A stretch of 38,789 bases of DNA from an uncultured Alcaligenaceae bacterium (GCA_964396485.1 CAYNFN010000467.1:1-38789), one strand, 5' to 3'. Positions 11,337 through 38,789 are shown, counted from the stretch's first letter. Program-made: numbers and translations. The notes: generated by a model from the letters alone, not told the origin.

Positions 11337-11346
11337 AGTCGGCAAT

Positions 11347-12344
11347 ATGCACAAAGAATTATTTGAAATCCTTCGCTGTCCACAGGCGGGCCGGCGGCTT
11401 GTCCTGGAACAACCGGAGTATCACGGGAACCGCATTCGTTCCGGATGGCTCGTTTCCGAGGGTGGCGCACATCGTTATCCGATCCGGGATTTCATTCCCC
11501 GCTTCGTGCCCGAATCAAACTATGCCGATAACTTCAGTATGCAGTGGAACAAGTTCCGGCAAACGCAACTTGACAGCTACTCGGGACATCCGATTTCCGC
11601 GAATCGTTTTTGGAAGGGGACCGGTTGGCGCCCAGAAATATCGCCGGACAATGGGTGCTGGATGCCGGATGCGGTGCAGGTCGGTTCGCAGAAGTGGCTC
11701 TCCAGGCAGGGGCCAAGGTGGTCGCACTGGATTACTCCAGTGCTGTCGATGCCTTTTATGCCAATCTGCAGCACTATCCCAACCTGCATGTGGTGCAGGG
11801 CGATATCTACGCTCTGCCGTTCCCCAAGGGATTTGTCCCTTACGTTTGCTCGCTTGGGGTGTTACGGCACACGCCGGATGTTGCGAAGGCATTTGCCGCC
11901 TTGCCTCCAATGGTTGCGGGAGACGGGCGGCTTTGTGTCGATTTCTATCAGAAATCTTGGAAGAGCCTGATGCTGCTCAAGTATTGGCTGCGGCCGATGA
12001 GAAGACGTATTCCCGAAGCGCTGCTGTTCCTAGCGTTGGTGTCGTTGGTGCCCAATTTGTTGCCCCTGAGCCGCGCGCTTGGCGGCGTACCATTGTTTGG
12101 TCGCGGGCTGAAACGATTGGTTCCCGTAGCGAACTATGTCGGCACTTACCCTTTGAGCGAGAAGCAACATCTGGAATGGTCTCTTCTCGACACGTTCGAT
12201 TGGCGGTCACCGGAGTTTGACAATCCGCAGACAGCAGAAACCGTGAACGGTTGTTTGCGCGATTCTGGCTTAGAACAAATCGAGGTACTAAAGGTGGGCC
12301 ATCTAGTGGGGCGAGGAGCCATGCCGTATGCGTCTCGGGATTGA
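11347..12344 (+). pseudogene. SAM-dependent methyltransferase with N-terminal Trm112-like domain, interrupted by a -1 frameshift near 11636-11638
   Basis: Frame 1 gives MHKELFEILRCPQAGRRLVLE...NFSMQWNKFRQTQLDSYSGHPISANRFWKGTGWRPE and then runs into nonsense. Frame 3 continues NIAGQWVLDAGCGAGRFAEVALQAGAKVVALDYS...GDIYALPFPKGFVPYVCSLGVLRHTPD (motif I plus post-I). Adding one A to the AAA run at 11636-11638 joins them as ...GWRPENIAGQWVLDAGCG.... Confidence 0.65.
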
Positions 12345-13497
12345 CGCATCCAATATACGGCTTGGAGGCGGCGTCACCCATCTGACCGAACTGCTACGGG
12401 TAGCCGATCCACTTGCATGTGGGTTTACGCAAGTCATCGTCTGGAGTGGGCAGGCGACCTTAAATCGGATCGCAAACCGTCCGTGGCTTCTGAAGTCCCA
12501 CCAATCGTTACTAGACAGGAGCTTGCCTTATCGCGCCGTCTGGCAACGTTTCAGGCTTTCCAGGCTGGCCCGGATGGCCAGGTGCGATGTGCTTTTTGTG
12601 CCCGGTGGTTCGTACGCAGGTGACTTTCACCCGATGGTGACCATGAGCCAAACCATGCTGCCGTTCGAGTGGCGGGAGTTGCGGCGGTACGGATGGTCCA
12701 TGACAACCCTCAGATTGATTCTGTTACGGAGGATGCAGTCGCGCAGCTTCCGGCGGTCGGATGGGCTTATTTTTCTGACGCAGTATGCTCGCGATAGAGT
12801 GATACAAGCCATCAAAGCTACTGCTGCTCGAACGACGAATATTCCCCACGGCATCGATGACCGATTTGCCAGTCCGCCACGCGAGCAACGGGCCATAAGC
12901 CAATTTTCGCTGGATCGGCCATTTCGCATCCTGTATGTCTCGATCATTGATGTGTACAAGCATCAGTGGCATGTTGCAGAGGCAATGGCTAAGTTAAGGG
13001 AAAGCGGTTTGCCCGTGGTACTGACTTTAGTGGGTCCAGCGTATCCGCCCGCCTTGAAGAGATTGAAGGCTGCGCTGGAACGGTTGGATCCTGAGGGCAC
13101 GTTCATTCGGTACTTGGGGCCGATTTATCATAGCGACTTCCCCAAGCACTACGGTGAGGCGGATGCGTGCCTCTATGCGTCGAGCTGCGAGAACATGCCA
13201 AATATTCTCCTGGAAGGAATGGCATCCGGGCTGCCAATCGCTTGTTCCAATCGCGGTCCGATGCCTGAGGTGCTGGGCGATGCTGGCGTGTATTTCGATC
13301 CAGAAAACCCGGATGACATTGCCCGTGCGCTTCGCGAACTGATCGACTCGCCTGAGTTGCGGGCCGGATTGGCGAAAGCTTCCTTTGAGCGTGCACATAG
13401 TTATTCTTGGCAGCACTGCGCCCGTGAGACATTCACGTTCCTGGCGGAGGTTTCCCGTGCGCACGGCGGTAAACCTGCAATGCCGTTTCATCCCTGA
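12328..13497 (+). CDS. family 4 glycosyltransferase (GT-B, EX7E)
   Basis: The N-terminus is MRLGIDASNIRLGGGVTHL. The C-terminal CENMPNILLEGMASGLPIACSNRGPMPEVLGDAGVYFDPENPDDIARAL carries the EX7E motif of retaining GT4 enzymes. Confidence 0.8.
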   Translation: MRLGIDASNIRLGGGVTHLTELLRVADPLACGFTQVIVWSGQATLNRIANRPWLLKSHQSLLDRSLPYRAVWQRFRLSRLARMARCDVLFVPGGSYAGDFHPMVTMSQTMLPFEWRELRRYGWSMTTLRLILLRRMQSRSFRRSDGLIFLTQYARDRVIQAIKATAARTTNIPHGIDDRFASPPREQRAISQFSLDRPFRILYVSIIDVYKHQWHVAEAMAKLRESGLPVVLTLVGPAYPPALKRLKAALERLDPEGTFIRYLGPIYHSDFPKHYGEADACLYASSCENMPNILLEGMASGLPIACSNRGPMPEVLGDAGVYFDPENPDDIARALRELIDSPELRAGLAKASFERAHSYSWQHCARETFTFLAEVSRAHGGKPAMPFHP

Positions 13498-13498
13498 C

Positions 13499-15427
13499 AT
13501 GTGCGGTATAGCCGGCTGTTACGGCTCATTCGCCCCTGAACGGCTTGCTCAGGCGAGCCGCCTACAAGCCCATCGTGGCCCGGATGCCGATGGAATCTGG
13601 TTCGATAGTGGAACCGGAATCGGCCTTGCCCACCGCCGTTTATCGATCCTTGACCTCTCCTCGGCGGGGGCCCAACCCATGGTCAGTGACGATGGCTCCG
13701 TGGTGTTGGTGTTCAACGGCGAAATTTACAACTTTCGGGAACTGCGGGCGGAATTGGAGGCGGGCGGTCACGGTTTCCGTGGGCATTCCGATACCGAGGT
13801 GTTGCTGCATCTCTATCTCGCTCACGGCGAACAGATGCTGGGACGGCTCAATGGCATCTTCGCCTTCGCTCTCTGGGACAAGCGCAACCAATCGCTGTTA
13901 GTGGCGCGCGACGCGTTTGGTGTAAAGCCGCTTTACTACGCCGACACTGCGGCCGGATTTACCTTCGCCAGCGAGATCAAGGCGCTGTTGTATCTTGTGC
14001 CAGAGGTGCGAGAACTCGATATTCCAGCGCTTCACCGTTATCTGAGTTTTCTCTGCTGCCCTGGCGAGGGTACGCCGCTGAGGGGCGTGCGCAAACTTTT
14101 GCCGGGCGAGGCGATGGTGGTGCGGGCGGGGAGGATTGCCCGGCGCTGGAGTTGGTATCAGTTGCCGGTATTTCGCGGGGTTACCGGGGATCTTTCCGAA
14201 GCGGACTCGCTAACTGGCACGGTTGAGGGGTTGCGACGTGCGGTGCATCGCCAACTGGTCGCAGATGTTCCAGTGGGAGCTTTCCTGTCTGGTGGACTGG
14301 ATTCGAGTGCGGTCGTCGCCTTCGCGCGCGAGCAGGTGCCGGATATCCGCTGCTTCACTATCGAATCGGCCGGCGGTCAGGAGGCCGGCACCACGGATGA
14401 TCTTCCCTATGCCCGCCGCGTGGCGCGGCACCTCGATGTGCCGCTGGACGTGGTGCGGATTGATGCCGGCCGCATGGCGGACGATGTGGAGCGCATGGTC
14501 GTGCAACTGGACGAACCGCTCGCAGACCCGGCGCCACTCAACGTGCTGTACATCAGTCGCTTGGCGCGCGAGCACGGGGTCAAGGTTCTGCTCTCCGGCG
14601 CTGGCGGGGATGATCTCTTTACGGGCTATCGGCGACACGTGGCGGTGCGGTACGAGCACCTCTGGCGTTGGCTGCCTACGGGAGTGCGTGGCGAGCTGGA
14701 ATGCTGGGCATCTGGGCTTGATCAGCGCAATCCCCTGTTCCGCCGACTGGCGAAGTTGTTTAACGGCGCGGGGCTGGAAGGGGACGCGCGGCTGGCGGCG
14801 TATTTCGCCTGGGCGCGGGAAGCGGATTTGCTGGCACTTTACACGCCGGAGTTTCGCGCCAGCCTTGGGGAGGCCTGTGCCGCCGCGCCCATGCTCGAAT
14901 TTCTGCAGCCGCTGCCCGCATCGGTGCGACCGTTGGACAAGATGCTTGCCCTGGAGCAGCGTTTCTTTCTGGCAGATCACAACCTCACTTATACCGATAA
15001 GATGTCAATGGCGGCGGGGGTGGAGGTACGGGTGCCGTTCCTCGACGCTGATCTGGTGGAGCATGCGGCAAAGATTCCGCTGGGACTGAAGCAACGGGGA
15101 CGTGTGGGGAAATGGGTGCTTAAGAAGGCGATGGAACCTTACTTGCCCAAAGATGTGATCTATCGCCCGAAGTCCGGTTTTGGGGCACCCTTGCGCCGCT
15201 GGATGCAGCATGAACTGCGTCCCTTGCTGGGCGACCTGCTCTCGGTGGATAGTCTCAGGCGGCGCGGCTTGTTTGCGCCGGCCGCGGTGCAGCAACTGAT
15301 TGCACGGAACGATAGCGGCAAGGCGGATGCGGCCTACACTTTATTGTCGTTGTTGAGCATTGAAATCTGGTGCCGCGCATTTCTGGATGGTCGGCCCATT
15401 GGAGCAGAATCACGTGACAACCGATAA
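13499..15427 (+). CDS. asparagine synthase (glutamine-hydrolysing) family amidotransferase (second paralog)
   Basis: ATG 13499 gives MCGIAGCYG (Cys2) two bases after the upstream stop. The track ORF start at 13385 is an upstream extension. It has HRGPDA, FNGEIYNF and the PP-loop FLSGGLDSS. Length is 642 aa. Confidence 0.85.
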   Translation: MCGIAGCYGSFAPERLAQASRLQAHRGPDADGIWFDSGTGIGLAHRRLSILDLSSAGAQPMVSDDGSVVLVFNGEIYNFRELRAELEAGGHGFRGHSDTEVLLHLYLAHGEQMLGRLNGIFAFALWDKRNQSLLVARDAFGVKPLYYADTAAGFTFASEIKALLYLVPEVRELDIPALHRYLSFLCCPGEGTPLRGVRKLLPGEAMVVRAGRIARRWSWYQLPVFRGVTGDLSEADSLTGTVEGLRRAVHRQLVADVPVGAFLSGGLDSSAVVAFAREQVPDIRCFTIESAGGQEAGTTDDLPYARRVARHLDVPLDVVRIDAGRMADDVERMVVQLDEPLADPAPLNVLYISRLAREHGVKVLLSGAGGDDLFTGYRRHVAVRYEHLWRWLPTGVRGELECWASGLDQRNPLFRRLAKLFNGAGLEGDARLAAYFAWAREADLLALYTPEFRASLGEACAAAPMLEFLQPLPASVRPLDKMLALEQRFFLADHNLTYTDKMSMAAGVEVRVPFLDADLVEHAAKIPLGLKQRGRVGKWVLKKAMEPYLPKDVIYRPKSGFGAPLRRWMQHELRPLLGDLLSVDSLRRRGLFAPAAVQQLIARNDSGKADAAYTLLSLLSIEIWCRAFLDGRPIGAESRDNR

Positions 15428-27207: not shown

Positions 27208-27227
27208 CAACCATTTTCTGCCGGAAA

Positions 27228-27405
27228 GGCCGAGGACGGAAGACGGAGGACTGAGGACTGAGGGCCGAGAAAAGGCGAGAGGAAAGAGAAAAGAGGAAAG
27301 AGGAAAGTAAGGGCGAGGACTCAGGACTGAGGGCCGAGGACTGAGGACGGAGCGCCGAGGACTGAGGACTGAGTACTGAGTAAGGGCAAGTGCTAGGTGC
27401 GAGTT
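27228..27405. repeat. heptanucleotide-register degenerate tandem repeat block R5
   Basis: It uses the same word set (ggccgaggac, ggactgagg, gagaaaaggcgagaggaaag, aggaaagtaaggg, gactcaggactgagggccgagg) in the same polarity. Confidence 0.8.
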
Positions 27406-28644: not shown

Positions 28645-28651
28645 AAAGGAC

Positions 28652-28982
28652 GGTGACCAGTGACTGGTGACAAGTGACGGGGAAAGGCAAAGATGAAGGC
28701 GGAAGGATGAAGGATGAAGAAAGACAGGGCCGAGGACTGAGAAAAGGCGAGGACTCAGGACTGAGGACGGAGGGCCGAGAAAAGGCGAGAGGAAAGGGGA
28801 AAGTAAGGGCGGTGACCAGTGACTGGTGACGAGTGACCAGTAAAGTTGAGGACTCGGGACGCAGCGAGAAGAGCAGGGCTGAGGTACGAGGGCCGAGGAA
28901 GGGCGAGGACTGAGGACTGAGGACGGAGGGCCGAGGAAGGGCGAGGACTCAGGACCCAGCGAGAAACGAGTGCGCAGTGCGA
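28652..28982. repeat. heptanucleotide-register degenerate tandem repeat block R6
   Basis: ggtgacc agtgact ggtgaca agtgacg ... tgaaggc ggaagga tgaagga tgaagaa ... aggactc aggactg aggacgg agggccg ... tgaccag tgactgg tgacgag tgaccag ... cgaggac tgaggac tgaggac ggagggc. About 330 bp in one phase. Confidence 0.85.
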
Positions 28983-29045
28983 CACCTGTTGAGTCCCTTC
29001 TCCCTCCGGGAGAAGGACAGGATGAGGGGGCTTTTGCCGGTGTTA

Positions 29046-29500: not shown

Positions 29501-30613
29501 ATGTTGTTACCTGGAAGCAAAGAGAATGACACCTGGTCGTTGGGCGCCTTGACCCGACTGGACTCCTATCGATTGGCGCTGACCCCGGCAAAAGAAGGGG
29601 TCGATCCCGCGGCATTTCGCGCGGCGCTGACAGAGGGTGGGCCCGCATTTGTGGATTTACTTCTAACGCAGAATCTCGGGGCGTGGTGGCATCATTGCCT
29701 TCAGGTAAACGGCTTACTTGAGTCGCTGCCACGCGGCGTGGCCGATGCATTGCAGCAGGCACGCATGGCGGCTGCGGCGAGATACCTGGCGCAGCGCACG
29801 GCGCTGATTCACATCGACCAGCTATTCGAAGCAGCGGGCATTTCCTACGCGGTCATGAAAGGCGCGCACGTGCGCGAGTGCGCGTACCCCGACCCTTCTC
29901 TGCGACTGACCGGCGACATCGACGTGTTGGTCACAGCGCCGGACCGGCGGTGCGCGGCGCACGCTCTGCTCGATGCCGGTTACTCGGTGAATGCTGACCT
30001 CGCCATAATCAGCCACGAGGCATGCTTCACGCGCTCGCCGGTGGAGATCGACCTGCACTGGGACATCATGCGGCCGGGCCGGACCCGCGCGGACATGACG
30101 GCGGGCTTGCTCGCGCGGCGACGACGGATCAACGGTTTCTGGGGGTTGTCCGATGCCGACGCTTTGTTCCTGATGCTGACCCATCCGGCATTCGCGAAGT
30201 ACGTATGCTCTCCGAACATGGGGTTGCCGCGCGTCGCGGACTTTCTGCTCCGGATCCAGAACAGGACGATTGATTGGCCCGCCGTCATGCGTTTGCTGGA
30301 AGTGGCAGGGCTGAGAACTGCCGCCTGGACCATGCTTAACTGGTTCCGGATGCTGGCCGCGCCGGCCGCAGGGGCGATTATCGACGGATGGCTGAACAGT
30401 CTGCGCCCGGGCGGCTTAAGGGCGCACTATCTTCGGCGTTGGCTGGATCATGATTTGCCGAGCCGCTGGTTGAACCGCCCGCTATTGATCCAGCTCGGGT
30501 TGACGCTGTTTCTGCACGATCGGTTCTCTGATACGTTGCATGCGGCGCAAGGGTGGCTGCATAGTCGTCGAAATCGCGGGCGTGACCTCCGGTTGTTGTT
30601 GGGTAACGACTGA
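29501..30613 (+). CDS. nucleotidyltransferase family protein (PF14907-like, as found in the HPr-rel-A system and in phosphorylated/glycosylated lasso clusters)
   Basis: 370 aa. ISYAVMKGAHVRECAYPDPSLRLTGDIDVLVTAPD...LLDAGY...VEIDLHWDI matches the pattern (l.lKG..l....Y.dp.lR...DiDlLV ... veLHw) that I associate with the uncharacterised nucleotidyltransferase family. Confidence 0.6.
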   Translation: MLLPGSKENDTWSLGALTRLDSYRLALTPAKEGVDPAAFRAALTEGGPAFVDLLLTQNLGAWWHHCLQVNGLLESLPRGVADALQQARMAAAARYLAQRTALIHIDQLFEAAGISYAVMKGAHVRECAYPDPSLRLTGDIDVLVTAPDRRCAAHALLDAGYSVNADLAIISHEACFTRSPVEIDLHWDIMRPGRTRADMTAGLLARRRRINGFWGLSDADALFLMLTHPAFAKYVCSPNMGLPRVADFLLRIQNRTIDWPAVMRLLEVAGLRTAAWTMLNWFRMLAAPAAGAIIDGWLNSLRPGGLRAHYLRRWLDHDLPSRWLNRPLLIQLGLTLFLHDRFSDTLHAAQGWLHSRRNRGRDLRLLLGND

Positions 30614-30736
30614 CTTTCTACGATGGGTATGAGGAAACCGCGAATTCCCAGCGATGCCGTTGGTGTCGGACGATACGGGAGAGACGCCACGGCGCGTGCG
30701 CCGCGAATTGCGGCCATGAACCTGTCGTGGCGTCTC

Positions 30737-30798
30737 TTCCCTCATCCCCAGCCCTTCTGCTCCGCTTCAAGTGTTCCCTTGTCCCGAGGGGAGAAAGG
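30737..30798 (+). repeat. about 60-bp dispersed repeat, copy B
   Basis: ttccctcatccccagcccttctgctccgcttcaagtgttcccttgtcccgaggggagaaagg, in direct orientation relative to copy A. It lies just upstream of the ABC transporter start and accounts for the spurious N-terminal extension of track ORF 30727. Confidence 0.7.
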
Positions 30799-30831
30799 AG
30801 CGTCGTGCTCCCCGCCCGGGCGGGGAGGTTC

Positions 30832-32511
30832 ATGGGTAGCGGCGTGAAAGGCATGGGTCTGCGAGCAATGCTGGGTTTCGCGCAACCTTATCGGACTTCG
30901 CTCACCGTAAGCGCGCTGCTGATGATCGCCGAGAGCGGCGTGGCGCTGGCGGTGCCGTGGCTCGCCGGCCACTTGGTCGAAAGCATGCTGGCCGCTACTG
31001 CATCCGCGTCCGGGGCCGGGCCGGTGTTGCTCGGGCTGCTTGCCCTGTTTGGTTTGCAGTCGCTGCTCAAGTTCGGCAACAGCTACCTGCTCAGCCATAG
31101 TGCGGAGCACATCCTGGCCGATCTGCGTATCCATCTCTACGATCACTTGCAGGCGCTGCCACTGGCCTTCTATCACCAGCGCCGCCGCGGTGAAATTCTC
31201 GCGCTGCTCACGAACGACGTCGGCCGCCTGAGCGGTTTTATCAGTGGCACCTTGCCGAGTTTGATTCCTCTGCTGCTTACTGTCGCCGGCGCCGTGCTGC
31301 TGATGTTCCGCATCGATGCCCGCTTGGCGCTGTACGTGGCCGCACTGGTGCCGCTGTTCTATCTGTTGCTGAAGATTCTCGGCCGAGGTCTGCGTCCGCT
31401 GGCTGGGCAGTTGCAAGAGGCGCATGCCGGGGCGGTCGCCATCGCCGAGGAAAACCTCGGCATGCTGCCGGCGATCAAGACCTTCACCCGCGAACCGGAG
31501 GAATCAGAACGCTATCGGCGGCAGATTCACCACATCCTGCATCTGAGCGCCGCGGAGCGGCGAATCGTCGCCGCGTTGGGGCCTGCGCTGCAGTTTCTTG
31601 CCGCGGCCGCCATGCTGTTGGTGCTCTGGCTGATGAGCGGGCAGATGATCGATCGTTCGCCGGCGGACATGGTGAGTTTTCTGCTCTATGCCGCGCTGCT
31701 CACCCGGCCTGTCAGCGCGCTGGCCGATGTCTATGGCCAGACCCGCCAGGCGCGCGGCTCACTGGAGCGGCTCAGGCAAGTGCTCACGGAGCGCCCCGAG
31801 CCGCTCCTGCGAATCGGGCACGCATTGCCACCAGTGCGAGGCGAAATTGAGTTTCGCGACATCCACTTCGCTTATCCGGGTCGCCCGCGGGCCCTCCGCG
31901 CGCTCAATCTGTATATTCGCGCCGGCGAGACGATCGCTATCACCGGCGTGAACGGCGCGGGCAAGAGCACCATTGCCCATTTGCTCATGCGCCTGGCGGA
32001 ACCCGATCACGGTCATATCTTCATCGATGGGGTGGACATTGCCGGGGTGACGCTGAACAGCCTGCGCGCTCAGATCGGCCTGGTTCCGCAGCATGTGCTG
32101 CTGTTTCATGGCACGGTGCGCGACAACATCGGCTATGGCCGCCCCGAGGCCGGCGCCGATTCGGTCATCGCGGCCGCCCGTGCCGCCCAGGCGCATGAAT
32201 TCATTTCCGCTCTTCCGCAAGGCTACGACAGCGTGATCGGCGACCAGGGCATTCGATTGTCCGGCGGTCAGCGCCAGCGCATCGCGCTCGCCCGCGCCCT
32301 CATCAAGGATCCGCCGATCCTGATCCTCGACGAGGCCACCGCCATGTTCGATCCGCAAGGCGAGAAATCCTTTGTCGAGGAGTGCCGGCACGGGCTGGCG
32401 CATCGAACCGTTATACTCATTACTCATCGTCCGGCGAGTCTGGCGCTGGCGGATCGAGTGGTACACCTGGAGGCCGGTTGCATTGCGGATTGGCGAAAGC
32501 CGATACCATGA
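30832..32511 (+). CDS. ABC exporter, fused permease/ATPase (type I exporter, McjD/MsbA-like)
   Basis: Six N-terminal TM helices, Walker A GVNGAGKST, signature LSGGQRQRIALARAL, Walker B ILILDEAT and an H-loop ITHR. ATG 30832 follows GGAGG; ATG 30853 is an alternative. The stop overlaps the B2 start (ATGA). Confidence 0.85.
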   Translation: MGSGVKGMGLRAMLGFAQPYRTSLTVSALLMIAESGVALAVPWLAGHLVESMLAATASASGAGPVLLGLLALFGLQSLLKFGNSYLLSHSAEHILADLRIHLYDHLQALPLAFYHQRRRGEILALLTNDVGRLSGFISGTLPSLIPLLLTVAGAVLLMFRIDARLALYVAALVPLFYLLLKILGRGLRPLAGQLQEAHAGAVAIAEENLGMLPAIKTFTREPEESERYRRQIHHILHLSAAERRIVAALGPALQFLAAAAMLLVLWLMSGQMIDRSPADMVSFLLYAALLTRPVSALADVYGQTRQARGSLERLRQVLTERPEPLLRIGHALPPVRGEIEFRDIHFAYPGRPRALRALNLYIRAGETIAITGVNGAGKSTIAHLLMRLAEPDHGHIFIDGVDIAGVTLNSLRAQIGLVPQHVLLFHGTVRDNIGYGRPEAGADSVIAAARAAQAHEFISALPQGYDSVIGDQGIRLSGGQRQRIALARALIKDPPILILDEATAMFDPQGEKSFVEECRHGLAHRTVILITHRPASLALADRVVHLEAGCIADWRKPIP

Positions 32512-32969
32512 CATCCATAACCGGAAAACTGGCGAAGTTCCGCGCGCTTTCAAAGACGCACCGGCGGATCATATTGAACGCGGCGTTCTTGCTGCCGTTG
32601 TTCTGGATCGGTTTGCATTTCATTGGTCTGCGCCGTTTGCAGGCCTGGTTGCAACACACGCCCGCGCGTTCGGACATGCGGCTTTCTCTGGATGATGTCA
32701 TGGCGATAGGCAATCTCGTGAATATCGCCGGCCGCCACGCGCCGTGTCCGATGAACTGCCTCACGCGTTCCCTACTGCTCGACTGGACGCTGCGCCGCCG
32801 CGGTGTGGCGAGCCAGCTGCGCATCGGCGTGCGTCTGTCGCAGGGCGCGCTCGATGCTCATGCCTGGGTCGAAGTTGCCGGCGTTCCCGTTAATGATCGG
32901 TCGGACGTGAGCGAGCAGTTCGCAGCGTTTGCCGAAATTTTGCCTCCCGCGGCCTTCCAGTCGCCGTGA
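32508..32969 (+). CDS. lasso peptide biosynthesis B2 protein (transglutaminase-like leader peptidase)
   Basis: 153 aa. NCLTRSLLLDWTLRRRGVASQLRIGV...LDAHAWVEVAGVPVND is the C..RSL.l...L.r.G....l..GV......HAWVe..G pattern with the Cys/His/Asp triad of McjB-C-terminal/B2 proteins. Confidence 0.8.
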   Translation: MTSITGKLAKFRALSKTHRRIILNAAFLLPLFWIGLHFIGLRRLQAWLQHTPARSDMRLSLDDVMAIGNLVNIAGRHAPCPMNCLTRSLLLDWTLRRRGVASQLRIGVRLSQGALDAHAWVEVAGVPVNDRSDVSEQFAAFAEILPPAAFQSP

Positions 32970-33010
32970 GCGGAATCACCGGCATCAATCACTGGCCAAG
33001 GTCCACGTAG
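32966..33010 (+). other. 15-codon relic resembling the 5' end of the cyclase gene, overlapping the B2 stop (GTGA)
   Basis: gtgagcggaatcaccggcatcaatcactgg (VSGITGINHW...stop at 33008-33010) matches atgagcgggatcgccggcatcattcattgt (MSGIAGIIHC) at 33972 in 24 of 30 nt, by my own alignment. Confidence 0.5.
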
Positions 33011-33020
33011 CGCCGGGCTC

Positions 33021-33908
33021 GTGCATCGCATGTTGCAGAAGAAAGGGGATGAGTCGTTGAGTGATTCTTCTTTATATGGAATGGCGGGGCAGGCGCTTGG
33101 GCGACCGAACAGGAGCAGTGCCTATCCATGGTATGACTCTGTCTGGCTTGAAGAATATACGAAAGCCAAGGCTATTATTCGCAAAATAAAGCCTGGCGCC
33201 TTGACTACTTTCGAGTCTGCTTTTCAGATTTTTCAAACCCGCAATGATTTTCAGGAAAAAGTTCTTGAGCGCGTGTTTGACGATAACACGCTCGATGAAA
33301 TCAGGCGCGTTGTCAAATCGTTAAGGCCATCGGATGTCGAAATGCACGAGGCACAAAGTTTCAAACGTTTTGTCGTGCATGACAATCCATTTTTTAATGA
33401 GCTGCAAAAGCAAATAACTCCATTGGTAAGCGCAGCAGCGGGTGAGCCGGTGGAAACGTCCTACAACTTCCTCAGCCTCTACAGCGCCATGGGCGTTTGC
33501 CCGGTCCATATGGACTCGCCTACGGCGAAATGGACGCTTGACATTTGTCTCGATCAGAGTGTGGGGTGGCCCATCTATTTCAGCCGACCCCATACCTGGT
33601 CAGAAATAGAAGCGCAAAACTGGTCCGACGAAGACTGGGCGGAGGTTATCAAAAGCTCTCCAACAGCCGACTTCAAGTCGTATATTTTGGAGCCGGGGCA
33701 GGCAATCCTGTTTTCTGGCGCCAGTCAGTGGCATTACCGGGATCCGATGCCCAAATCAGATGGCCGTGCCAGCTGTGATTTACTTTTTTTCCATTTCATT
33801 CCGCAGGGCACTTCCGAGTTGGTGAACCCACGGAACTGGGCGGGTTTGTTCGGAATTCCAGAACTTGCACGAGCTGTGAAAGCGTCTCCGAAGATCCCAC
33901 ATGGATAG
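33021..33908 (+). CDS. hypothetical protein, possible Fe(II)/2-oxoglutarate-dependent oxygenase (cupin fold)
   Basis: 295 aa and visibly more AT-rich than its neighbours. A candidate facial triad comes from CPVHMDSP (H.D) and SQWHYRD (distal His) about 70 residues apart, with beta-strand-like segments between them. There is no stronger motif. The start is uncertain (GTG 33021, ATG 33030 or 33081). Confidence 0.35.
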   Translation: MHRMLQKKGDESLSDSSLYGMAGQALGRPNRSSAYPWYDSVWLEEYTKAKAIIRKIKPGALTTFESAFQIFQTRNDFQEKVLERVFDDNTLDEIRRVVKSLRPSDVEMHEAQSFKRFVVHDNPFFNELQKQITPLVSAAAGEPVETSYNFLSLYSAMGVCPVHMDSPTAKWTLDICLDQSVGWPIYFSRPHTWSEIEAQNWSDEDWAEVIKSSPTADFKSYILEPGQAILFSGASQWHYRDPMPKSDGRASCDLLFFHFIPQGTSELVNPRNWAGLFGIPELARAVKASPKIPHG

Positions 33909-33971
33909 CAGTCGTGTTCGCTTGGAAAGGTTTTTGGACGCTCCCGTTCTCGCCACGGCCTGTATCGCACC

Positions 33972-35852
33972 ATGAGCGGGATCGCCGGCATCATTCATTG
34001 TGACGGTGTGCCCGTCGAACCGGGGCTGGTCGAGAAAATGACCGCCGCCATGGCCTACCGCGGGCCGGACGGCATCAACCATTGGGTCAAGGGCTCGGTT
34101 GCATTGGGGCAGTGCATGCTGCGCACAACCCCGGAATCGCTCGAAGAAACCCAGCCGCTGACAAACGAAGACCAGAGCCGGGTGCTCGTCATGGATGGGC
34201 GCGTGGACAATTGGGAAGAACTCCGCACGGAGCTGCTCGCCTGCGGCGCGATGCTCAGAAACCGCGCCGATGCCGAACTGGTATTGCGAGCCTACGAGAC
34301 TTGGGGCCGGGACTGCCTCACGCACATCGACGGCGACTTCGCACTGGTGATCTGGGATGTGCGGCGGCAGGAAGCGTTTTGCGCGCGCGACCGCATGGGT
34401 AACAAGCCGTTCCATTATCATTGGAGCGGTAACACGCTGGTCTTTGCCTCAGAACTGCATCCGATTCTCGCGCTGCCGTGGGTGCCGCAAATGCCGAATG
34501 AGGGCATGCTGGCAGAGTTTCTCGCGGCGGAGTGGTATTCGCGCGATGAAACACTTTGGAATGGAATCCTGCGTCTCCTTGCCGCGCACCGCATGACGGT
34601 CGGCCGTCGCGGGCCGCAAACCGATCAATACTGGGGACCGAATCTGTGGGCGGCACCGGCATATACAAGGGACGAAGAATATTTCGAGCATTACCGGGAA
34701 TTGCTAACGGACAGCGTCCGGCGGTTGTCGCGTTCGCACCGCCCGGTCGCCGTCGAGGTCAGCGGCGGTCTCGATTCCTCCGCCGTGTTCTGCCTCGGGG
34801 AGCACCTGCGTCGTGCCGGTCGTTTGCCCGCGCCCGGTATCCGTGGGTACACCATGGCCTTCACGGACGACAGCGCCGCCAATGAAATCGCCTATGCCCG
34901 GGCCGTAGGCGAATATTTGGGTCTGCCGATTGAGGAGATCGCCCCTTCCATCCCACCGCTTTCCTGGTATGAAGAGCGCGCTCACATGTACCGGGAGTTC
35001 CCCGGTTATCCGAACGGGACGATGTATCTTGATGCGATGAGGCATGCTGCATCTCTGGGGTGCCGCACGGTGCTGACCGGCCAAGGGGGCGACGCCTGGG
35101 CGCAAGGTTCACGGGAGTACTATGCCGAGGAGATGGCGCAACGGCATTGGACCGCGCTTCGAGACAGCTTCAGAAATGATTCCGGCGTGTACGGTACCCA
35201 GCAGGCCATGGCATGGTTTGTCCGGTACGGCTTTTATCCCTTGCTTCCAATCGCACTTCAGCATGGATTGCGCCAACTGGTGCGCAGGCTGCGCGGCACG
35301 GCGATTCGCGACACCTATTGGCTTTCGCCGCGGATGCGGCAGGTTATTGCGGCGCGTCGTGAACACCCCCGTCCGTGGATTGGTCAGCGAGTGCGCAGTA
35401 TCAGTCAGCGGGAATTGCTTCAGAAACTGTATGACGCGTTTACCATCCAGGCAATGGAATTCCTGGATCGGGAGGGCGCCCGTGCCGGGTTCGAAATACG
35501 GCATCCGTTCCATGCCACGGCCTTTGTCCAATTCGCGTTCGCGACGCCGGCAAGGCTGCGATTGCGGGGCGATCGCACCAAATACATTCACGTCCAGGCC
35601 ATGCAAGGCCTGATGCCCCCGATCATCCTCGATCGGAAAACCAAGGCGGAATTCTCGGTTGTATTCCATATGCAGATGGTCCGGATGAAATCGCTGCTGA
35701 CCGAATCGATTCCCAGGGAGCGAACCGGCTGGGTAGACCCGGTGGGCACGTCCATGCTCTTCCAAGCGTATGTGAACACCCCGCAGGTGGGTTGGCCATT
35801 ATGGGTTTTGTGGAGTATCTTTGGGTCTGACGCGGTGGTGAAAGGGCTCTGA
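33972..35852 (+). CDS. asparagine-synthetase-like lasso peptide cyclase (C protein)
   Basis: 626 aa with AsnB architecture and the PP-loop VEVSGGLDSS. It begins MSGIAG, so Ser replaces the catalytic Cys2, unlike the two MCGI paralogs at 9465 and 13499. It lies next to B2 and the precursor gene. Confidence 0.8.
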   Translation: MSGIAGIIHCDGVPVEPGLVEKMTAAMAYRGPDGINHWVKGSVALGQCMLRTTPESLEETQPLTNEDQSRVLVMDGRVDNWEELRTELLACGAMLRNRADAELVLRAYETWGRDCLTHIDGDFALVIWDVRRQEAFCARDRMGNKPFHYHWSGNTLVFASELHPILALPWVPQMPNEGMLAEFLAAEWYSRDETLWNGILRLLAAHRMTVGRRGPQTDQYWGPNLWAAPAYTRDEEYFEHYRELLTDSVRRLSRSHRPVAVEVSGGLDSSAVFCLGEHLRRAGRLPAPGIRGYTMAFTDDSAANEIAYARAVGEYLGLPIEEIAPSIPPLSWYEERAHMYREFPGYPNGTMYLDAMRHAASLGCRTVLTGQGGDAWAQGSREYYAEEMAQRHWTALRDSFRNDSGVYGTQQAMAWFVRYGFYPLLPIALQHGLRQLVRRLRGTAIRDTYWLSPRMRQVIAARREHPRPWIGQRVRSISQRELLQKLYDAFTIQAMEFLDREGARAGFEIRHPFHATAFVQFAFATPARLRLRGDRTKYIHVQAMQGLMPPIILDRKTKAEFSVVFHMQMVRMKSLLTESIPRERTGWVDPVGTSMLFQAYVNTPQVGWPLWVLWSIFGSDAVVKGL

Positions 35853-35951
35853 AGCTACTTTAGGTGGCCGCTTATGGCATGCTTTCTGCTGGCTATTTGA
35901 GTTCGTTCAGACAATTGTTGCCAATTTCAAAATTCATATTTTTTTTGGGGA

Positions 35952-36365
35952 ATGACCATGAACGATAAGAAAAACCCTCTCACCGCAAGCAAGAACGCGA
36001 CGGTCAAGACCGCCAAGCCTGATAAAGCCTCCTATTCTGCGCCCCTGCTTCGGGTTTATGGTTCCGTGAGCAAGCTGACTTTGGGTGGTGGTGGTAGTTT
36101 GGGCGATGGCGCACTCATGGATATGTTGCCGAGCGATCGATTGATTAAAGAAAACATCGTCCGAATCGACACCCACCCGTTCGGCATAGGCCTTTACCTG
36201 TTCGACTACAAGCCGGAATACCGGGAACGTTGCGGCACTGGCCGGCAGCTTGGTATCATGGCCGATGAAGTTGAAACGGTTGTACCGGATGCAGTATTCG
36301 TTCACCCAGACGGCTACAAGATGGTCAACTACGCGAAGCTGGGGATCAGTCACGGTATCCAGTAA
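35952..36365 (+). CDS. lasso peptide precursor fused to a C-terminal Peptidase_S74-type intramolecular chaperone (self-cleaving) domain
   Basis: The leader is ...KASYSAPLLRVYGSVSKLTL with Y-17, P-14, L-12, G-8 and T-2. The core is GGGGSLGDGALMDMLP (36084-36131), with Gly1 and Asp8. From 36132 it reads SDRLIKENIVRIDTHPFGIGLYLFDYKPEY...GRQLGIMADEVETVVPDAVFVHPDGYKMVNYAKLG. That matches the S74 pattern SD.r.K.NI ... G.iAqEv..v.P..V ... dGy..vnY..L, including Ser and Lys five residues apart. The start is ATG 35952 or ATG 35958; the latter has better spacing from GGGGA. A 100-bp AT-rich spacer lies upstream. Confidence 0.75.
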   Translation: MTMNDKKNPLTASKNATVKTAKPDKASYSAPLLRVYGSVSKLTLGGGGSLGDGALMDMLPSDRLIKENIVRIDTHPFGIGLYLFDYKPEYRERCGTGRQLGIMADEVETVVPDAVFVHPDGYKMVNYAKLGISHGIQ

Positions 36366-36394
36366 GCCGGGCGGGGAGGCGTAGCGCAGGTTCT

Positions 36395-37516
36395 ATGCTG
36401 CAGGAGCACCTGGATTATGTCGCTGATCTTGTCAGACTGGAACGATACAGGGCCGCAATAACCAAGGTTGTTGCTCCCGGAAATACCGTAGCAGATTTGG
36501 GGTGCGGCTCGGGGGTGCTGGGGTTGTTGTGCCTGCAGGCCGGCACGGGCCATGTGTATGCTGTCGATGACAGCGCCATGATCGACATTGCCCGGGAGTC
36601 TCTGACGCGAGCCAGTCTGGTTGACCGCGCCACCTTCATCCGTGGCAAATCCAGCCAGATCGAATTGCCCGAGCGGGTAGACGTGGTGATCTGTGATCAT
36701 GTCGGCTACTTCGGTTTTGACTACGGTGTGGTTGAGTTTCTCGGAGACGCCAAACGGCGTTTTCTCAAGCCGGGCGGCACACTGATCCCTTCAAAAATCC
36801 GGCTCAATATTGCCGCTGCCGGTTCACAGAAATGCAGCGCGCTTGCCGATGGCTGGCAAGGCAACAACATCCCTCCCGAGTTTCACTGGCTGCGCAGTTA
36901 TTCGATCAATACCAAGCATGCGGTCGAGTTTGGGCGGGATGACGTTCTTGGTCCGCCTGCTGTACTGGGCGATATCGATCTCTATGCGGATAACCCGGAG
37001 TTTTTTTCCTGGAACGCAGAGTTGCGTATCGAACGCGACGGGGTGATGCACGGCGTGGCCGGTTGGTTCGACTGCGAGCTGGCCGAGAATGTCTGGATGA
37101 CGAATTCGCCGCTGGCGGCAAAACCAATCCGCCGTCCGCAGGCTTTTCTGCCCATCGGTGAGGCCGTGCCGGCAAAGTGCGGAGATGTTGTCACAGTCAC
37201 CATCATGGTGCGTCCGGCCGAGCAGTTAATTGCCTGGACCGTGGAATTCTCAACCACAGGACAGCGCTTCAGCCATTCAACTTGGCAGAGTATATTGTTG
37301 TCGCCGGAAAATCTGATCCGGGCCAACCCCCGCCATATTCCGCAGTTAAGCCGGGAAGGGCGGGCACGCATGACGGTGCTGGGATACTGTGATGGAAAAA
37401 GAACAACGCAGGAAGTCGAACAGGCAGTGCTGCGCGATCATCCGAACTTGTTCCCGACCAGCGGAGAAATTGCACGCTTCGTGGCACGGGTGCTGGGCAG
37501 GGATACCGGAGCGTGA
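36395..37516 (+). CDS. PRMT-fold SAM-dependent methyltransferase with C-terminal PqqD/RRE-like winged-helix extension
   Basis: The sequence reads RYRAAI...VADLGCGSGVLGLLCLQAG..HVYAVDDS...ATFIRGKSSQIELPERVDVVICDHVGYFGFDYGV...FLKPGGTLIP. It then has a beta-barrel-like half, VMHGVAGWFDCEL...GDVVTVTIMVRP. Both parallel PRMT1 block by block. The last 60 aa (ARMTVLGYCDGKRTTQEVEQAVLRDHPNLFPTSGEIARFVARVL) look PqqD-like. Confidence 0.6.
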   Translation: MLQEHLDYVADLVRLERYRAAITKVVAPGNTVADLGCGSGVLGLLCLQAGTGHVYAVDDSAMIDIARESLTRASLVDRATFIRGKSSQIELPERVDVVICDHVGYFGFDYGVVEFLGDAKRRFLKPGGTLIPSKIRLNIAAAGSQKCSALADGWQGNNIPPEFHWLRSYSINTKHAVEFGRDDVLGPPAVLGDIDLYADNPEFFSWNAELRIERDGVMHGVAGWFDCELAENVWMTNSPLAAKPIRRPQAFLPIGEAVPAKCGDVVTVTIMVRPAEQLIAWTVEFSTTGQRFSHSTWQSILLSPENLIRANPRHIPQLSREGRARMTVLGYCDGKRTTQEVEQAVLRDHPNLFPTSGEIARFVARVLGRDTGA

Positions 37517-38376
37517 CGGACTACAGTTTGGCAGAGGCGCGCCCGCAAATACCCCTCGGCAATGCGCTGTTCCACCAATGGATCTTCCCGGACGGTACGA
37601 CCTGGACGCAGTTCTATCGCGCTGAGAGCGGTTATCTGCTGCGTTTCCCCGATCTCGCGGATTTTTTGGTATCACGCGATGGCCGTGCGGTGAGCTGCTG
37701 GCCCGTGCCTGGCGTTTCGGATCAATCGGTGCAACACCTCTATCTGAATCAGGTGTTGCCGCTGGCGCTCAGCAGACAGGGGAAACTGGTTTTTCATGCC
37801 AGCGCCGTGGAGATAGGCGACGCGGCAGTTGCTTTTATGGGCGAGGCCGGCCGAGGCAAGTCCACCCTGGCGGCAAGTTTCGCCACCACCGGATCGCGCT
37901 TTCTCACCGATGACGGACTGGCGGTGGAGACAGTTGCGGGAGATTGGCGTGTTCTGCCAAGTCACCCCTCCATTCGTCTATGGGAAGACAGTCAGGATGC
38001 GCTGGTGCGCACGGGCGTGCGGAAGGCCCCACCGGTCTCGTATACCTCCAAGGCGCGATTCCTGGCGGGTGACGATATTGTTTTCTGCGAAGAACCACGG
38101 CGGCTTCAAGGTGTGTATTTTCTCGGCACGGGTGTGTCGCCGGAACCGATGTTCGAGCGCTTGCAGCCCAGCGACGCCTTGATCGAGCTGGTGAAGCATT
38201 CTTTCCTGCTCGATATAGAGGAGCACGAGCTACTCGCGGCACATTTCGATGAACTGTCCCGCCTGGCGAACCGGCCGATATACTATCGTCTGGATTATCC
38301 ACGGCGTTTCGAAGATCTGGCACAGGTCAGAAGGGCGATCGTGGATCACGTGCATGCAGAGGACACGACGGCATGA
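37513..38376 (+). CDS. HPr kinase/phosphorylase-related kinase (HprK-related kinase A-like; lasso precursor kinase candidate)
   Basis: FHASAVEIGDAAVAFMGEAGRGKSTLAASFATTGSRFLTDDGLAV parallels the HprK C-terminal domain HG..v...G.GvLi.G.SG.GKSe.a..l...Gh.LvaDD. The GTGA overlap with the methyltransferase gene and the ATGA overlap with the PqqD gene indicate one translationally coupled unit. Confidence 0.7.
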   Translation: MTDYSLAEARPQIPLGNALFHQWIFPDGTTWTQFYRAESGYLLRFPDLADFLVSRDGRAVSCWPVPGVSDQSVQHLYLNQVLPLALSRQGKLVFHASAVEIGDAAVAFMGEAGRGKSTLAASFATTGSRFLTDDGLAVETVAGDWRVLPSHPSIRLWEDSQDALVRTGVRKAPPVSYTSKARFLAGDDIVFCEEPRRLQGVYFLGTGVSPEPMFERLQPSDALIELVKHSFLLDIEEHELLAAHFDELSRLANRPIYYRLDYPRRFEDLAQVRRAIVDHVHAEDTTA

Positions 38377-38645
38377 ATCTTTCCGACAAAATAAAAATAC
38401 CGGCGCAGGTGATGGCGCGGCAGGTGGGCGCGGAGACGGTGATTCTGGACTTGGCCACCGGCACATACTTCGGTCTGGATCCGGTCGGCGCGCGCATCTG
38501 GCAACTGATGAGTGAAGGCAAAACGCTTGCGGAAGTCTGCGACGCGATGCAGACGGAATTTGAGGTGTCGCGCGAAGACATCGAGCGCGACGTCATCGAG
38601 TTGACGGAGAAACTGAAAGCGCAGCAGTTAATCAGCGCTGCGTAA
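38373..38645 (+). CDS. PqqD-family RiPP recognition element (lasso B1)
   Basis: 90 aa. VGAETVILDLATGTYFGLDPVGARIWQLMSEGKTLAEVCDAMQTEFEVSREDIERDVIELTEKLKAQQLI is the classic PqqD pattern (e.vll......y.Ln..g..iW.l.....t..ei...l...y.v....e.dv..fl..L...gli). Confidence 0.8.
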   Translation: MNLSDKIKIPAQVMARQVGAETVILDLATGTYFGLDPVGARIWQLMSEGKTLAEVCDAMQTEFEVSREDIERDVIELTEKLKAQQLISAA

Positions 38646-38789
38646 AAGGGAAAAAGGGGAAAGTTAAGGGCGAGGACTCAGGACTGAGGGCCGAGTAAAG
38701 GCGGGGACTGAGGACGGAGGGGCGGGGACTGAGTAAGGGCGAGGACTCAGGACTGAGGGCCGAGGACTGAGTAGAAGCAGTGACTCAGG
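38646..38789. repeat. heptanucleotide-register degenerate tandem repeat block R7 (runs to the window edge)
   Basis: aaagggaaaaaggggaaagttaagggcgaggactcaggactgagggccgagtaaaggcggggactgaggacggagg... uses the same words and the same polarity as R1-R6, and shares aagggcgaggactcaggactgagggccgag with R5. Confidence 0.8.

Follow-up and report, generated by a model that had tools for sequence, protein, structure and literature searches.

The window, as we call the 38,789-nucleotide stretch of DNA from an uncultured Alcaligenaceae bacterium that was analysed, carries on its plus strand a lasso peptide cluster in which the precursor is fused to a predicted self-cleaving S74 domain and is followed by a methyltransferase, a HprK-like kinase and a PqqD-family protein. 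Positions are those of the whole window, and the features are:

29501..30613, plus strand: nucleotidyltransferase of the NTP_transf_5 type (PF14907, E=1.9e-39), a candidate for PsmN/LppN-type tailoring
30727..32511, plus strand: MsbA-like ABC exporter (D; ABC_membrane plus ABC_tran)
32508..32969, plus strand: lasso leader peptidase B2 (Transglut_core3, E=9e-23; NF033537, E=1.8e-21)
33021..33908, plus strand: 295-aa protein between B2 and C, no family match
33972..35852, plus strand: lasso macrolactam cyclase (C; NF033535, E=2.4e-109, below the model cutoff; Asn_synthase plus GATase domains)
35952..36365, plus strand: lasso precursor (A) fused to the predicted self-cleaving S74 domain (NF033521, Peptidase_S74)
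36096..36098, plus strand: Ser49 (core Ser5), the favoured candidate for the kinase target from ring Ser/Thr statistics
36132..36149, plus strand: Ser61 to Lys66, predicted S74 Ser-Lys dyad from profile alignment
36395..37516, plus strand: PRMT-like SAM methyltransferase (MT), 373 aa (Methyltransf_25 and PRMT_C)
37513..37516, plus strand: overlap of MT stop and kinase start, GTGA, read from the sequence
37513..38376, plus strand: P-loop kinase of HprK/PEPCK fold (K), 287 aa, ScmC/HprK-like (Hpr_kinase_C, TIGR04352, AF2/Foldseek)
38373..38376, plus strand: overlap of kinase stop and PqqD start, ATGA, read from the sequence
38373..38645, plus strand: PqqD-family RiPP recognition element (RRE), lasso B1 (PF05402)

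From the cyclase on the order is C–A–MT–K–B1, and the last three genes are joined by 4-nt overlaps. The kinase starts with a GTG that runs into the MT stop as GTGA, and the ATG of PqqD (38373-38375), with a GAGGA some 12 nt 5' of it, overlaps the TGA of the kinase (38374-38376), confirming from the sequence the translational coupling of the two that an earlier note on this DNA had claimed. A high-copy repeat lies at 30752-30786, inside the called 5' end of the exporter ORF. The real start of B2 is probably the ATG at 32508, overlapping the exporter stop; the B2 orthologue in the closest relative (L051) has 153 aa and the same overlap. The exporter itself probably starts downstream of 30786, its L051 orthologue being of 568 aa. 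The 295-aa gene matches nothing in Pfam, NCBIfam or PDB sequences, and its homologues are seen in L001 and six sphingomonad-type loci but are absent from L051. The methyltransferase matches PRMT6/CARM1 chains at E~1e-23 and carries an additional C-terminal region of about 90 aa; neither this C-terminus nor the N-terminus of the kinase finds a Pfam match at E≤10. The last 55 or so residues of MT align weakly with the helical half of PqqD by hhalign (E=1.8e-4), and with a probability of just 48% we do not claim a second RRE there. No gene for a SpI-like leader peptidase is found between 29501 and 38645, and the idea that a further small precursor ending in Ser lies hidden in the cluster was dropped, since intergenic gaps of just 30-115 nt leave no room for one. 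Two runs labelled RNA-Seq, which are assembled contigs and not reads, cover 35798-37046, 37287-37660 and 37720-37943 only, the contig at 37287-37660 spanning the MT/kinase junction; in a DNA run coverage is even over the entire cluster.

The precursor divides into a leader (aa 1-44, YSAPLL...KLTL), a core (aa 45-60, 36084-36131, GGGGSLGDGALMDMLP) and the S74 domain (aa 61-137, 36132-36362), which ends in …HGIQ. It matches the NF033521 lasso leader model at E=2.5e-4 and Peptidase_S74 with 25.8 bits against a cutoff of 22. The core has one hydroxyl residue, Ser49 (core Ser5); it ends in Pro and thus has no C-terminal Ser, as had been noted earlier, and S61-D-R-L-I-K66 follows directly. The leader fits the YxxPxL motif with Thr at −2 that is described as cognate to B1 (PMC13381572). 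There are 535 precursor homologues; in the family alignment Y, P and T(−2) are invariant, core position 8 is acidic, and the S74 domain opens with S-D-x3-K.

The family profile matches a phage tail fibre (6f45, E=4.9e-4) and the MyRF ICA domain (7dc3, E=1.5e-3), with Ser61 falling at MyRF S587 and Lys66 at K592. Cleavage of MyRF was mapped by MS to P586|S587, and its S587/K592 pair is equivalent to S911/K916 of endoNF (PMC8326128). S74/ICA domains are cut just before the Ser, so that Ser61 would go with the released domain, and by this analogy a cut at Pro60|Ser61 is predicted with good confidence. The proposals of the earlier note that Ser61 is the putative S74 nucleophile and that the released domain begins at the conserved Ser both gain from this register. 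At the position of Ser61 a Ser is found in 154/157 sequences, and the natural Cys variants fit a nucleophile role. A Foldseek search of the PDB with the AF2 model of the precursor monomer (S74 domain pLDDT ~80) gave no significant match; known ICA domains are intertwined trimers.

The same note had also raised a cut that leaves Ser61 on the core, and more generally autoproteolysis or a later trimming could be supposed to yield a C-terminal Ser for a kinase of the classical paeninodin type. All lasso kinases characterised before 2026 modify a C-terminal Ser (PMC9266682), and a second cluster in L018, whose kinase is the one canonical example found and just 29% identical to that of the window, has the same leader motif in a precursor with Thr as its last residue. 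Against these stand the mapped cleavage on the N-terminal side of the Ser, with the alignment in register, and the variation of the residue before it (P 34, A 20, V 14, M 13 and others), which is Ser or Thr in 17/146 cores. Moreover a core from one of the Cys variants would have Cys as its last residue. A C-terminal Ser produced in this way is therefore regarded as scarcely credible, the least probable of the readings weighed here.

Assignment of the kinase starts from a weak Pfam match. Hpr_kinase_C (E=3.6e-4) and TIGR04352 (E=3e-10) are both below cutoff and phmmer against PDB sequences returned only P-loop noise, but an AF2 model (pLDDT 82, pTM 0.81) finds PEPCKs at E~1e-5 and the HprK/P structure 3tqf at E=7.8e-5 in Foldseek, and close homologues are labelled PF27840 (ScmC)/PF07475. 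Candidate catalytic residues are His95 (37795-37797), Lys116 (37858-37860) and Asp133-Asp134 (37909-37914); H, GKST and DD are invariant in 30-38 orthologues, position 133 being D/E. The four would correspond to the His-Lys-Asp-Asp motif that PMC9266682 reports for lasso kinases, with the PadeK numbering inferred from the HprK-like region. From its residues and its model the kinase looks active. Orthologues are at least 62% identical over the best 120 matches.

The PqqD product of 90 aa matches PF05402 at E=1.1e-20, and the NCBIfam model lasso_PqqD_Bac (E=2.1e-15) and, weakly, the ScmD-type TIGR04248, both below cutoff. An HMM made from 49 PqqDs of the family and run against the ORFs of the window gives E=7.5e-43 for 38373-38645 and E=4.2 for the runner-up, which bears out the earlier statement that this is the only PqqD-like gene here; so too is its separation from B2 as described, the 5404 nt from the end of B2 at 32969 to 38373. 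In a NJ tree the PqqDs of the S74-lasso family fall into two clades, one linked to the kinase and one to B2, and the PqqD of the window groups with the kinase-coupled clade, apart from the B2-coupled one. Both kinds occur together in L006, L015 and L049; of the loci with one kind alone, about 27 have the K-linked and 8 the B2-linked PqqD, and the window and its closest relative have kept the K-linked copy alone. Since loci carry one or both clades, it appears from these sequences that a single RRE probably serves all of the leader-dependent enzymes.

Drawn for 52 related loci, tblastn and ORF maps show one module again and again: cyclase, S74 precursor, in some cases a methyltransferase, then kinase and PqqD. 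Loci arranged as C–A(S74)–[MT]–K–PqqD are seen in alpha-, beta- and gammaproteobacteria. Where a locus extends far enough to tell, a kinase nearly always adjoins the S74 precursor; four apparently kinase-less loci (L013, L014, L026, L048) had been considered as a natural control and were set aside, their sequences being cut short, interrupted or frameshifted, or their precursors not of the lasso type. A 4-nt overlap of the ATGA type is found in 22/33 kinase-linked PqqD genes of the related loci, and also in L053, and so the kinase–PqqD arrangement is far beyond chance. In the commonest family layout B2 lies upstream of the cyclase and PqqD after the kinase, and L025 and L034 have K–B1–B2, a paeninodin-like order. 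The order C A K B1 B2 D is given for paeninodin-type clusters in PMC5067487, and LPP clusters run lppA-K-B-S-D-N with the RRE directly after the kinase (PMC13381572). The oddity that the earlier note had implied for a B1 placed after K thus falls away, and what is encoded here is almost certainly a conserved tailoring module of an HprK-like kinase and a discrete RRE, common to paeninodin-like lasso clusters and LPP clusters, with its usual companions, the NTP-transferase and the MsbA-like exporter, also present in the window. The gene order matches this known module and therefore no new regulatory design is to be read from it; the point is in itself ordinary. What is noteworthy is that S74-lasso precursors almost always come with a well conserved HprK-like kinase despite having no C-terminal Ser, and so the questions raised are where this kinase acts, and whether one RRE serves kinase, peptidase, cyclase and methyltransferase alike.

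As to the first question, all 146 distinct rings carry a Ser or Thr, where 11.9±2.8 rings would be expected to have none; in 20,000 column shuffles, in which kinship among the sequences is ignored, the number of Ser/Thr-less rings never reached zero. Which ring position is conserved depends on the subfamily: in Asp8 cores it is position 5 (Ser or Thr in 66%), in Glu8 cores position 3 (82%). The window and its nearest relatives have exactly one core hydroxyl, with S5 exchanging for T5. The end of the core behaves differently, there being no conserved C-terminal Ser and 31/146 tails having no Ser or Thr at all. A precedent exists in LppK, whose target for (poly)phosphorylation is an internal core residue, Ser3 (PMC13381572), and so the restriction of paeninodin-type kinases to a C-terminal Ser, taken by the earlier note as established, is too narrow. 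With no conserved C-terminal Ser, a Ser or Thr in every ring and the LppK precedent, Ser5 (Ser49) is the best candidate acceptor, although on comparative sequence grounds we would give it only an even chance. The enrichment could also have a structural cause, a tight ring of 8 residues favouring small polar ones; nor is the acceptor position fixed (positions 2-5), and many rings offer Thr only, a residue that LppK rejected (S3T).

Phosphorylation of Ser61 in the uncleaved precursor, so as to block or time autoproteolysis, was another option put forward in the earlier note. Ser61 is the only near-invariant Ser of the precursor outside the ring positions, its distance from the leader would by inference be about that of the C-terminal Ser in paeninodin-type cores, and the kinase is universally linked to S74 precursors. 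Yet Cys replaces it in L003, L049/L050 and L053 (three variants in two lineages) and the kinase stays intact there, that of L049 retaining its H/K/D/D residues, with PqqD also present where the contig reaches. An exchange of Ser for Cys suits a nucleophile and not the acceptor of a Ser kinase, and a phosphate on Ser61 would go with the discarded domain and therefore yield no modified product. A Ser61 target or phospho-switch thus seems highly improbable, and of the three target options of the earlier note the comparative data favour Ser5 and disfavour Ser61.

That the kinase leaves the core unmodified, acting on the leader (Thr −2 for instance), another protein or a small molecule, or serving mainly as a scaffold with PqqD, is unlikely too, but considerably less so. 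It would suit a ring hydroxyl that varies in position, and a conservation of the kinase well above that of the cores would fit an invariant target; HprK-like/PqqD pairs also occur in cassettes that are not of the lasso type (ScmC/ScmD-type and HprK_rel_A hits). However the catalytic residues are invariant, leader Thr −2 is required by B2, and all characterised relatives from RiPP clusters phosphorylate the core peptide (PMC13381572, PMC9266682). The S74 domain has no invariant Ser/Thr except the nucleophile, and for that reason was dropped as a target in its own right.

Overall the best explanation, to which we give a probability of roughly 55%, is a kinase–RRE module working within an S74-lasso family, with phosphorylation of a ring hydroxyl and with Ser61 lost along with its domain. 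The single PqqD would bind the YxxPxL…T(−2) leader and hand the linear precursor to the kinase and to B2/C, and perhaps present it to the methyltransferase too. The kinase, through His95/Lys116/Asp133/Asp134, would phosphorylate a ring hydroxyl (here Ser5/Ser49) of the leader-bearing precursor, and the phosphate so added may in turn be decorated by the NTP-transferase. By its cut at Pro60|Ser61 the S74 domain would remove itself, taking Ser61 with it and leaving a mature tail that ends in …MDMLP. A wider and more tentative version, which we hold at somewhat under even odds, is that the kinase has shifted from a C-terminal Ser to an in-ring Ser/Thr guided by the K-linked PqqD paralogue, which in most lineages would also act as B1 for B2, and that the product is possibly glycosylated by way of the NTP-transferase and released from a self-cleaving, probably trimeric follower.

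In the literature searched, which misses most subscription journals, no description of a lasso or other RiPP precursor with a self-cleaving S74 domain was found, and so this large family of S74-domain lasso clusters is apparently undescribed; most of its more than 500 precursors bear the annotation 'tail fiber domain-containing' or hypothetical protein. A ring phospho-site, if true, would extend lasso-peptide chemistry and would support the emerging view, drawn from work on LPPs, that it is the RRE-bound leader and not the C-terminus of the peptide that positions HprK-like RiPP kinases. It would also define a RiPP subclass of ring-phosphorylated lasso peptides with a self-cleaving follower, none being described in that literature.

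Four kinds of known system may be compared. HprK-like and PqqD genes stand next to one another in the ScmC/ScmD (SynChlorMet) and HprK_rel_A cassettes of the TIGRFAMs descriptions; the window resembles these in its PF27840 (ScmC) kinase homologues and in the kinase match to TIGR04352 and PqqD match to TIGR04248, which are below curated cutoffs, and differs in that the cassettes have radical-SAM enzymes and no lasso genes. With the S74/ICA domains of phage tailspikes and MyRF the window shares S-D-x3-K in register with endoNF S911/K916 and MyRF S587/K592, and a Pro|Ser junction at Pro60|Ser61, but its domain is far shorter (77 aa) and sits on a 60-aa RiPP leader and core rather than on a triple beta-helix.

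The LPP clusters (PMC13381572) have an HprK-like kinase, a discrete RRE, a MsbA-like exporter and an NTP-transferase, all four of which are present here (29501-32511 and 37513-38645), and in both cases the kinase target, Ser3 in LPP and candidate Ser5 in the window, is an internal Ser near the leader/core junction; both kinds of cluster also adjoin glycosyltransferase-rich loci. In contrast to the window with its lasso B2, cyclase and S74 follower, LPPs are linear and have a leader peptidase like signal peptidase I, and LppK rejected Thr (S3T) whereas many S74-lasso rings offer Thr only. The NTP-transferase family accompanies the kinase in these clusters and in that of pseudomycoidin (PMC9266682). 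Closest overall are the paeninodin-type systems (PadeK/ThcoK/SyanK; PsmK/PsmN), which likewise have a lasso C, split B1/B2, an ABC exporter, an HprK-like kinase followed directly by B1, an enzyme of the NTP_transf_5 type, a YxxPxL leader with Thr at −2 and H-K-D-D kinase residues. The likening of the window kinase to PadeK, ThcoK, SyanK, PsmK and LppK is one of fold, motif and published descriptions. Set apart from the paeninodin type by its proteobacterial hosts, the S74-lasso family as seen in the window also differs in a precursor that has a 77-aa, predicted self-cleaving S74 domain after the core in place of a C-terminal Ser, in a B2 moved upstream to adjoin the exporter, and in a PRMT-like methyltransferase placed between precursor and kinase.

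The lasso-peptide cluster spans 29501-38645 on the plus strand of the window, and the coordinates and residue numbers that the earlier note gave for the kinase, PqqD and precursor are correct when checked against the window sequence. The genes are:

29501-30613, plus strand, NTP_transf_5 nucleotidyltransferase
30727-32511, plus strand, MsbA-like ABC exporter
probably 32508-32969, plus strand, B2 (leader) peptidase, its start overlapping the ABC stop
33021-33908, plus strand, 295-aa gene without a family match
33972-35852, plus strand, lasso cyclase
35952-36365, plus strand, precursor of 137 aa
36395-37516, plus strand, PRMT-like methyltransferase
37513-38376, plus strand, HprK-like kinase
38373-38645, plus strand, PqqD (B1, leader-binding)

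In the window sequence GTGA forms the methyltransferase/kinase overlap and ATGA the kinase/PqqD overlap, and an HMM from 49 family PqqDs finds one PqqD copy in the window, bearing out the coupling noted earlier. The contig ends 144 nt beyond PqqD. L051, the closest relative, whose precursor is 86% identical, likewise has PqqD as the last gene of its cluster and lacks a second one.

Several features of the surroundings can be recorded. The 295-aa gene has no match in Pfam, NCBIfam or PDB; its product shows the sequence pattern H-x-D … H (VHMD … QWHY), which recalls Fe/2OG oxygenases, and homologues occur in L001 and, after PqqD on the opposite strand, in six sphingomonad-type loci, the gene being missing from L051. 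A 35-nt element between nucleotidyltransferase and exporter (30752-30786) has an assembly depth of ~270 against ~7 around it in a DNA run and is found in many unrelated contigs, and so is a high-copy repeat; because the longest ABC ORF contains it, the actual exporter start is probably downstream of it. Purine-rich repeats with a period of ~7 nt (GAGGACT/GAGGGCC) fill three intergenic stretches (27216-27390, 28646-28983 and 38650-38789), two of which bracket the cluster, the contig end falling in the last; GTGACCA-type units lie at 28646-28686 and 28805-28845. Directly upstream is a polysaccharide-type locus (1-28644) with several glycosyltransferases, a UDP-GlcNAc 2-epimerase, a heparinase II/III-like protein, a WecA-like Glycos_transf_4 and two AsnB-like amidotransferases (9465-11336 and 13385-15427), and L051 has the same neighbours.

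The window kinase matches HprK models weakly in sequence and finds no match among PDB sequences, while an AF2 model from 30 orthologues (pLDDT 82, pTM 0.81) matches PEP carboxykinases and HprK/P. The orthologues, at least 62% identical among the best 120 of 3,520 matches, share without exception His95, the GRGKST P-loop (with Lys116) and Asp133-Asp134. This set matches the His-Lys-Asp-Asp motif described for kinases of lasso clusters (PMC9266682). A kinase follows the precursor in essentially all loci with sufficient flank, exceptions being truncated, interrupted or frameshifted. The MAG of L018 also contains another kinase-lasso cluster, of canonical type (B1 B2 C A K; 9940-13709, minus strand), with a kinase 29% identical to that of the window and a 56-aa precursor (…YRSPKLVAYGGVRRLTD/AVDAAGAADGGYAGGMTRT) having the same leader motif, no S74 domain and Thr as last residue.

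The window precursor has the leader …YSAPLLRVYGSVSKLTL, the core GGGGSLGD(8)GALMDMLP and then S61-D-R-L-I-K66-E-N. Its 535 database homologues (125-150 aa) nearly all contain PF13884, and Mesorhizobium members are annotated as 'tail fiber domain-containing protein'. In alignments the leader Tyr and Pro are invariant, Thr stands at -2 and core position 8 is acidic, after which come a variable tail and S-D-x3-K-E-N. The family profile matches 6f45, a chain of a phage long tail fibre (E=4.9e-4), and 7dc3, the ICA domain of MyRF (E=1.5e-3). In these alignments the family Ser falls on MyRF residue 587, which the mutant used for crystallisation has as Ala, and the family Lys on K592. Mass spectrometry showed MyRF to be cut between P586 and S587, with S587/K592 equivalent to endoNF S911/K916 (PMC8326128), and so the predicted cut in the window lies between Pro60 and Ser61. 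Ser61 would then depart with the released S74 domain and the leader-core peptide would end …MDMLP. An AF2 monomer model of the S74 domain was of moderate confidence and gave no Foldseek match. Several loci carry two to four tandem S74 precursors (L014, L020, L023, L029, L038), and in many cores of the Glu8 type the tail is long and contains a pair of Cys (e.g. …NCNGNANRKCNP), which suggests that a disulfide bridges it.

The earlier note raised, among three possibilities, that the kinase acts on Ser61, where phosphorylation before cleavage would block autoproteolysis. Of 157 precursors, 154 have Ser at the nucleophile position; the other three have Cys, as natural variants with …/CDRS[TV]KEN at the junction:

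L003, 1894-2301, Cys-nucleophile precursor
L049, 10001-10414 (also L050), Cys-nucleophile precursor
L053, 1920-2327, Cys-nucleophile precursor

Each still precedes an intact kinase (catalytic residues kept in L049), then PqqD where the contig extends so far. This fits a nucleophile role and argues against Ser61 as a conserved acceptor, so such a phospho-switch is unlikely.

In the 146 distinct cores whose position 8 is acidic, the last residue is Ser/Thr in only 17 and the tail lacks Ser/Thr in 31, so a C-terminal or tail site cannot, from these alignments, be the conserved target. No ring (positions 1-7) lacks Ser/Thr, where column shuffles, which ignore phylogeny, predict 11.9±2.8 and reached zero in none of 20,000. 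Perhaps half of characterised proteobacterial lasso rings (e.g. microcin J25, caulosegnin, xanthomonin) lack Ser/Thr, which, if so, would make the figure more striking; the enrichment may be of structural origin. The favoured position differs by subfamily, 5 in Asp8 cores (66%) and 3 in Glu8 cores (82%), and the window's subclade has exactly one core hydroxyl, Ser5 or Thr5. LppK, the kinase of linear polyphosphorylated peptide (LPP) clusters, phosphorylates internal Ser3 of its core, a precedent for a site few residues beyond the leader junction, and does not accept Thr (PMC13381572). Taken together, these points favour Ser5 (Ser49) as the window kinase's site, with a probability of about one half.

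Two freshwater-sediment runs labelled RNA-Seq give contigs only over 35798-37046, 37287-37660 (crossing the methyltransferase/kinase junction) and 37720-37943, covering precursor, methyltransferase and the 5' portion of the kinase gene; one starts at 35950, two bases ahead of the precursor ORF. In a DNA run on a sample of that type, coverage is even along the full cluster. The RNA-Seq-labelled data, which consist of assembled contigs and whose library type is uncertain, fit, weakly, a transcript starting near the precursor and running into the kinase.

The methyltransferase is genuinely homologous to PRMTs (PRMT6/CARM1, E~1e-23) and sits between precursor and kinase in most loci, yet the window core has no Arg or Lys. 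Candidate substrates could be the new C-terminal carboxylate or invariant Arg residues of the S74 domain. Its extra C-terminal ~55 aa weakly resemble the helical half of PqqD (hhalign probability 48%).

A neighbour-joining tree of 49 PqqDs separates a kinase-linked clade, including that of the window, from a B2-linked clade, into which the B1 of the canonical L018 cluster falls. Both kinds occur in L006, L015 and L049/L050, the kinase-linked kind alone in about 27 loci and the B2-linked kind alone in eight (L020, L021, L024, L029-L032, L045). Kinase and B2 are present in every typed locus wherever the contig reaches, and so the simplest reading is that either paralogue could work with every enzyme that depends on the leader; help from B1 proteins to tailoring enzymes, phosphorylation included, is already reported or suggested in reviews (PMC9266682; PMC13381572).

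The window's nine proteins were mapped on 48 genome loci fetched with the precursor alignment and six from exact-protein look-up. The cyclase–precursor–[methyltransferase]–kinase–PqqD string is found again in MAGs and isolates of alpha-, beta- and gammaproteobacteria, Mesorhizobium, Ramlibacter and Aurantiacibacter among them, and B2 mostly has the position it has in the window, upstream of the cyclase. The same 4-nt overlap marks the PqqD start in 22 of 33 kinase-linked genes, and in L053 too. The separation of B1 from B2 and its tie to the kinase, which the earlier note singled out, is thus real but is the family norm. Apparently new is the system around kinase–PqqD: a lasso precursor with a predicted self-cleaving S74 follower, a PRMT-like methyltransferase facing an Arg-free core, and a universally present HprK-like kinase that has no C-terminal Ser to act on; the literature searched gave no description of this precursor family or system.

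The coupling of kinase and PqqD is of a kind described before. L025 and L034 have the order K–B1–B2, 4-nt overlaps joining all three in L034, the same as in the order published for firmicutes, C A K B1 B2 D (PMC5067487). The order in LPP clusters, a recent description, is lppA-K-B-S-D-N, with the leader-binding RRE after the kinase; this placement, the exporter and the NTP-transferase are common to LPP clusters and the window family, and glycosyltransferase-rich surroundings are noted for LPP clusters as well (PMC13381572), the window cluster adjoining its polysaccharide-type locus. As kinase then B1 is found in family, firmicute and LPP orders, their coupling is a known module, and the sole difference from paeninodin in the kinase-B1 arrangement is that B2 is relocated beside the exporter.
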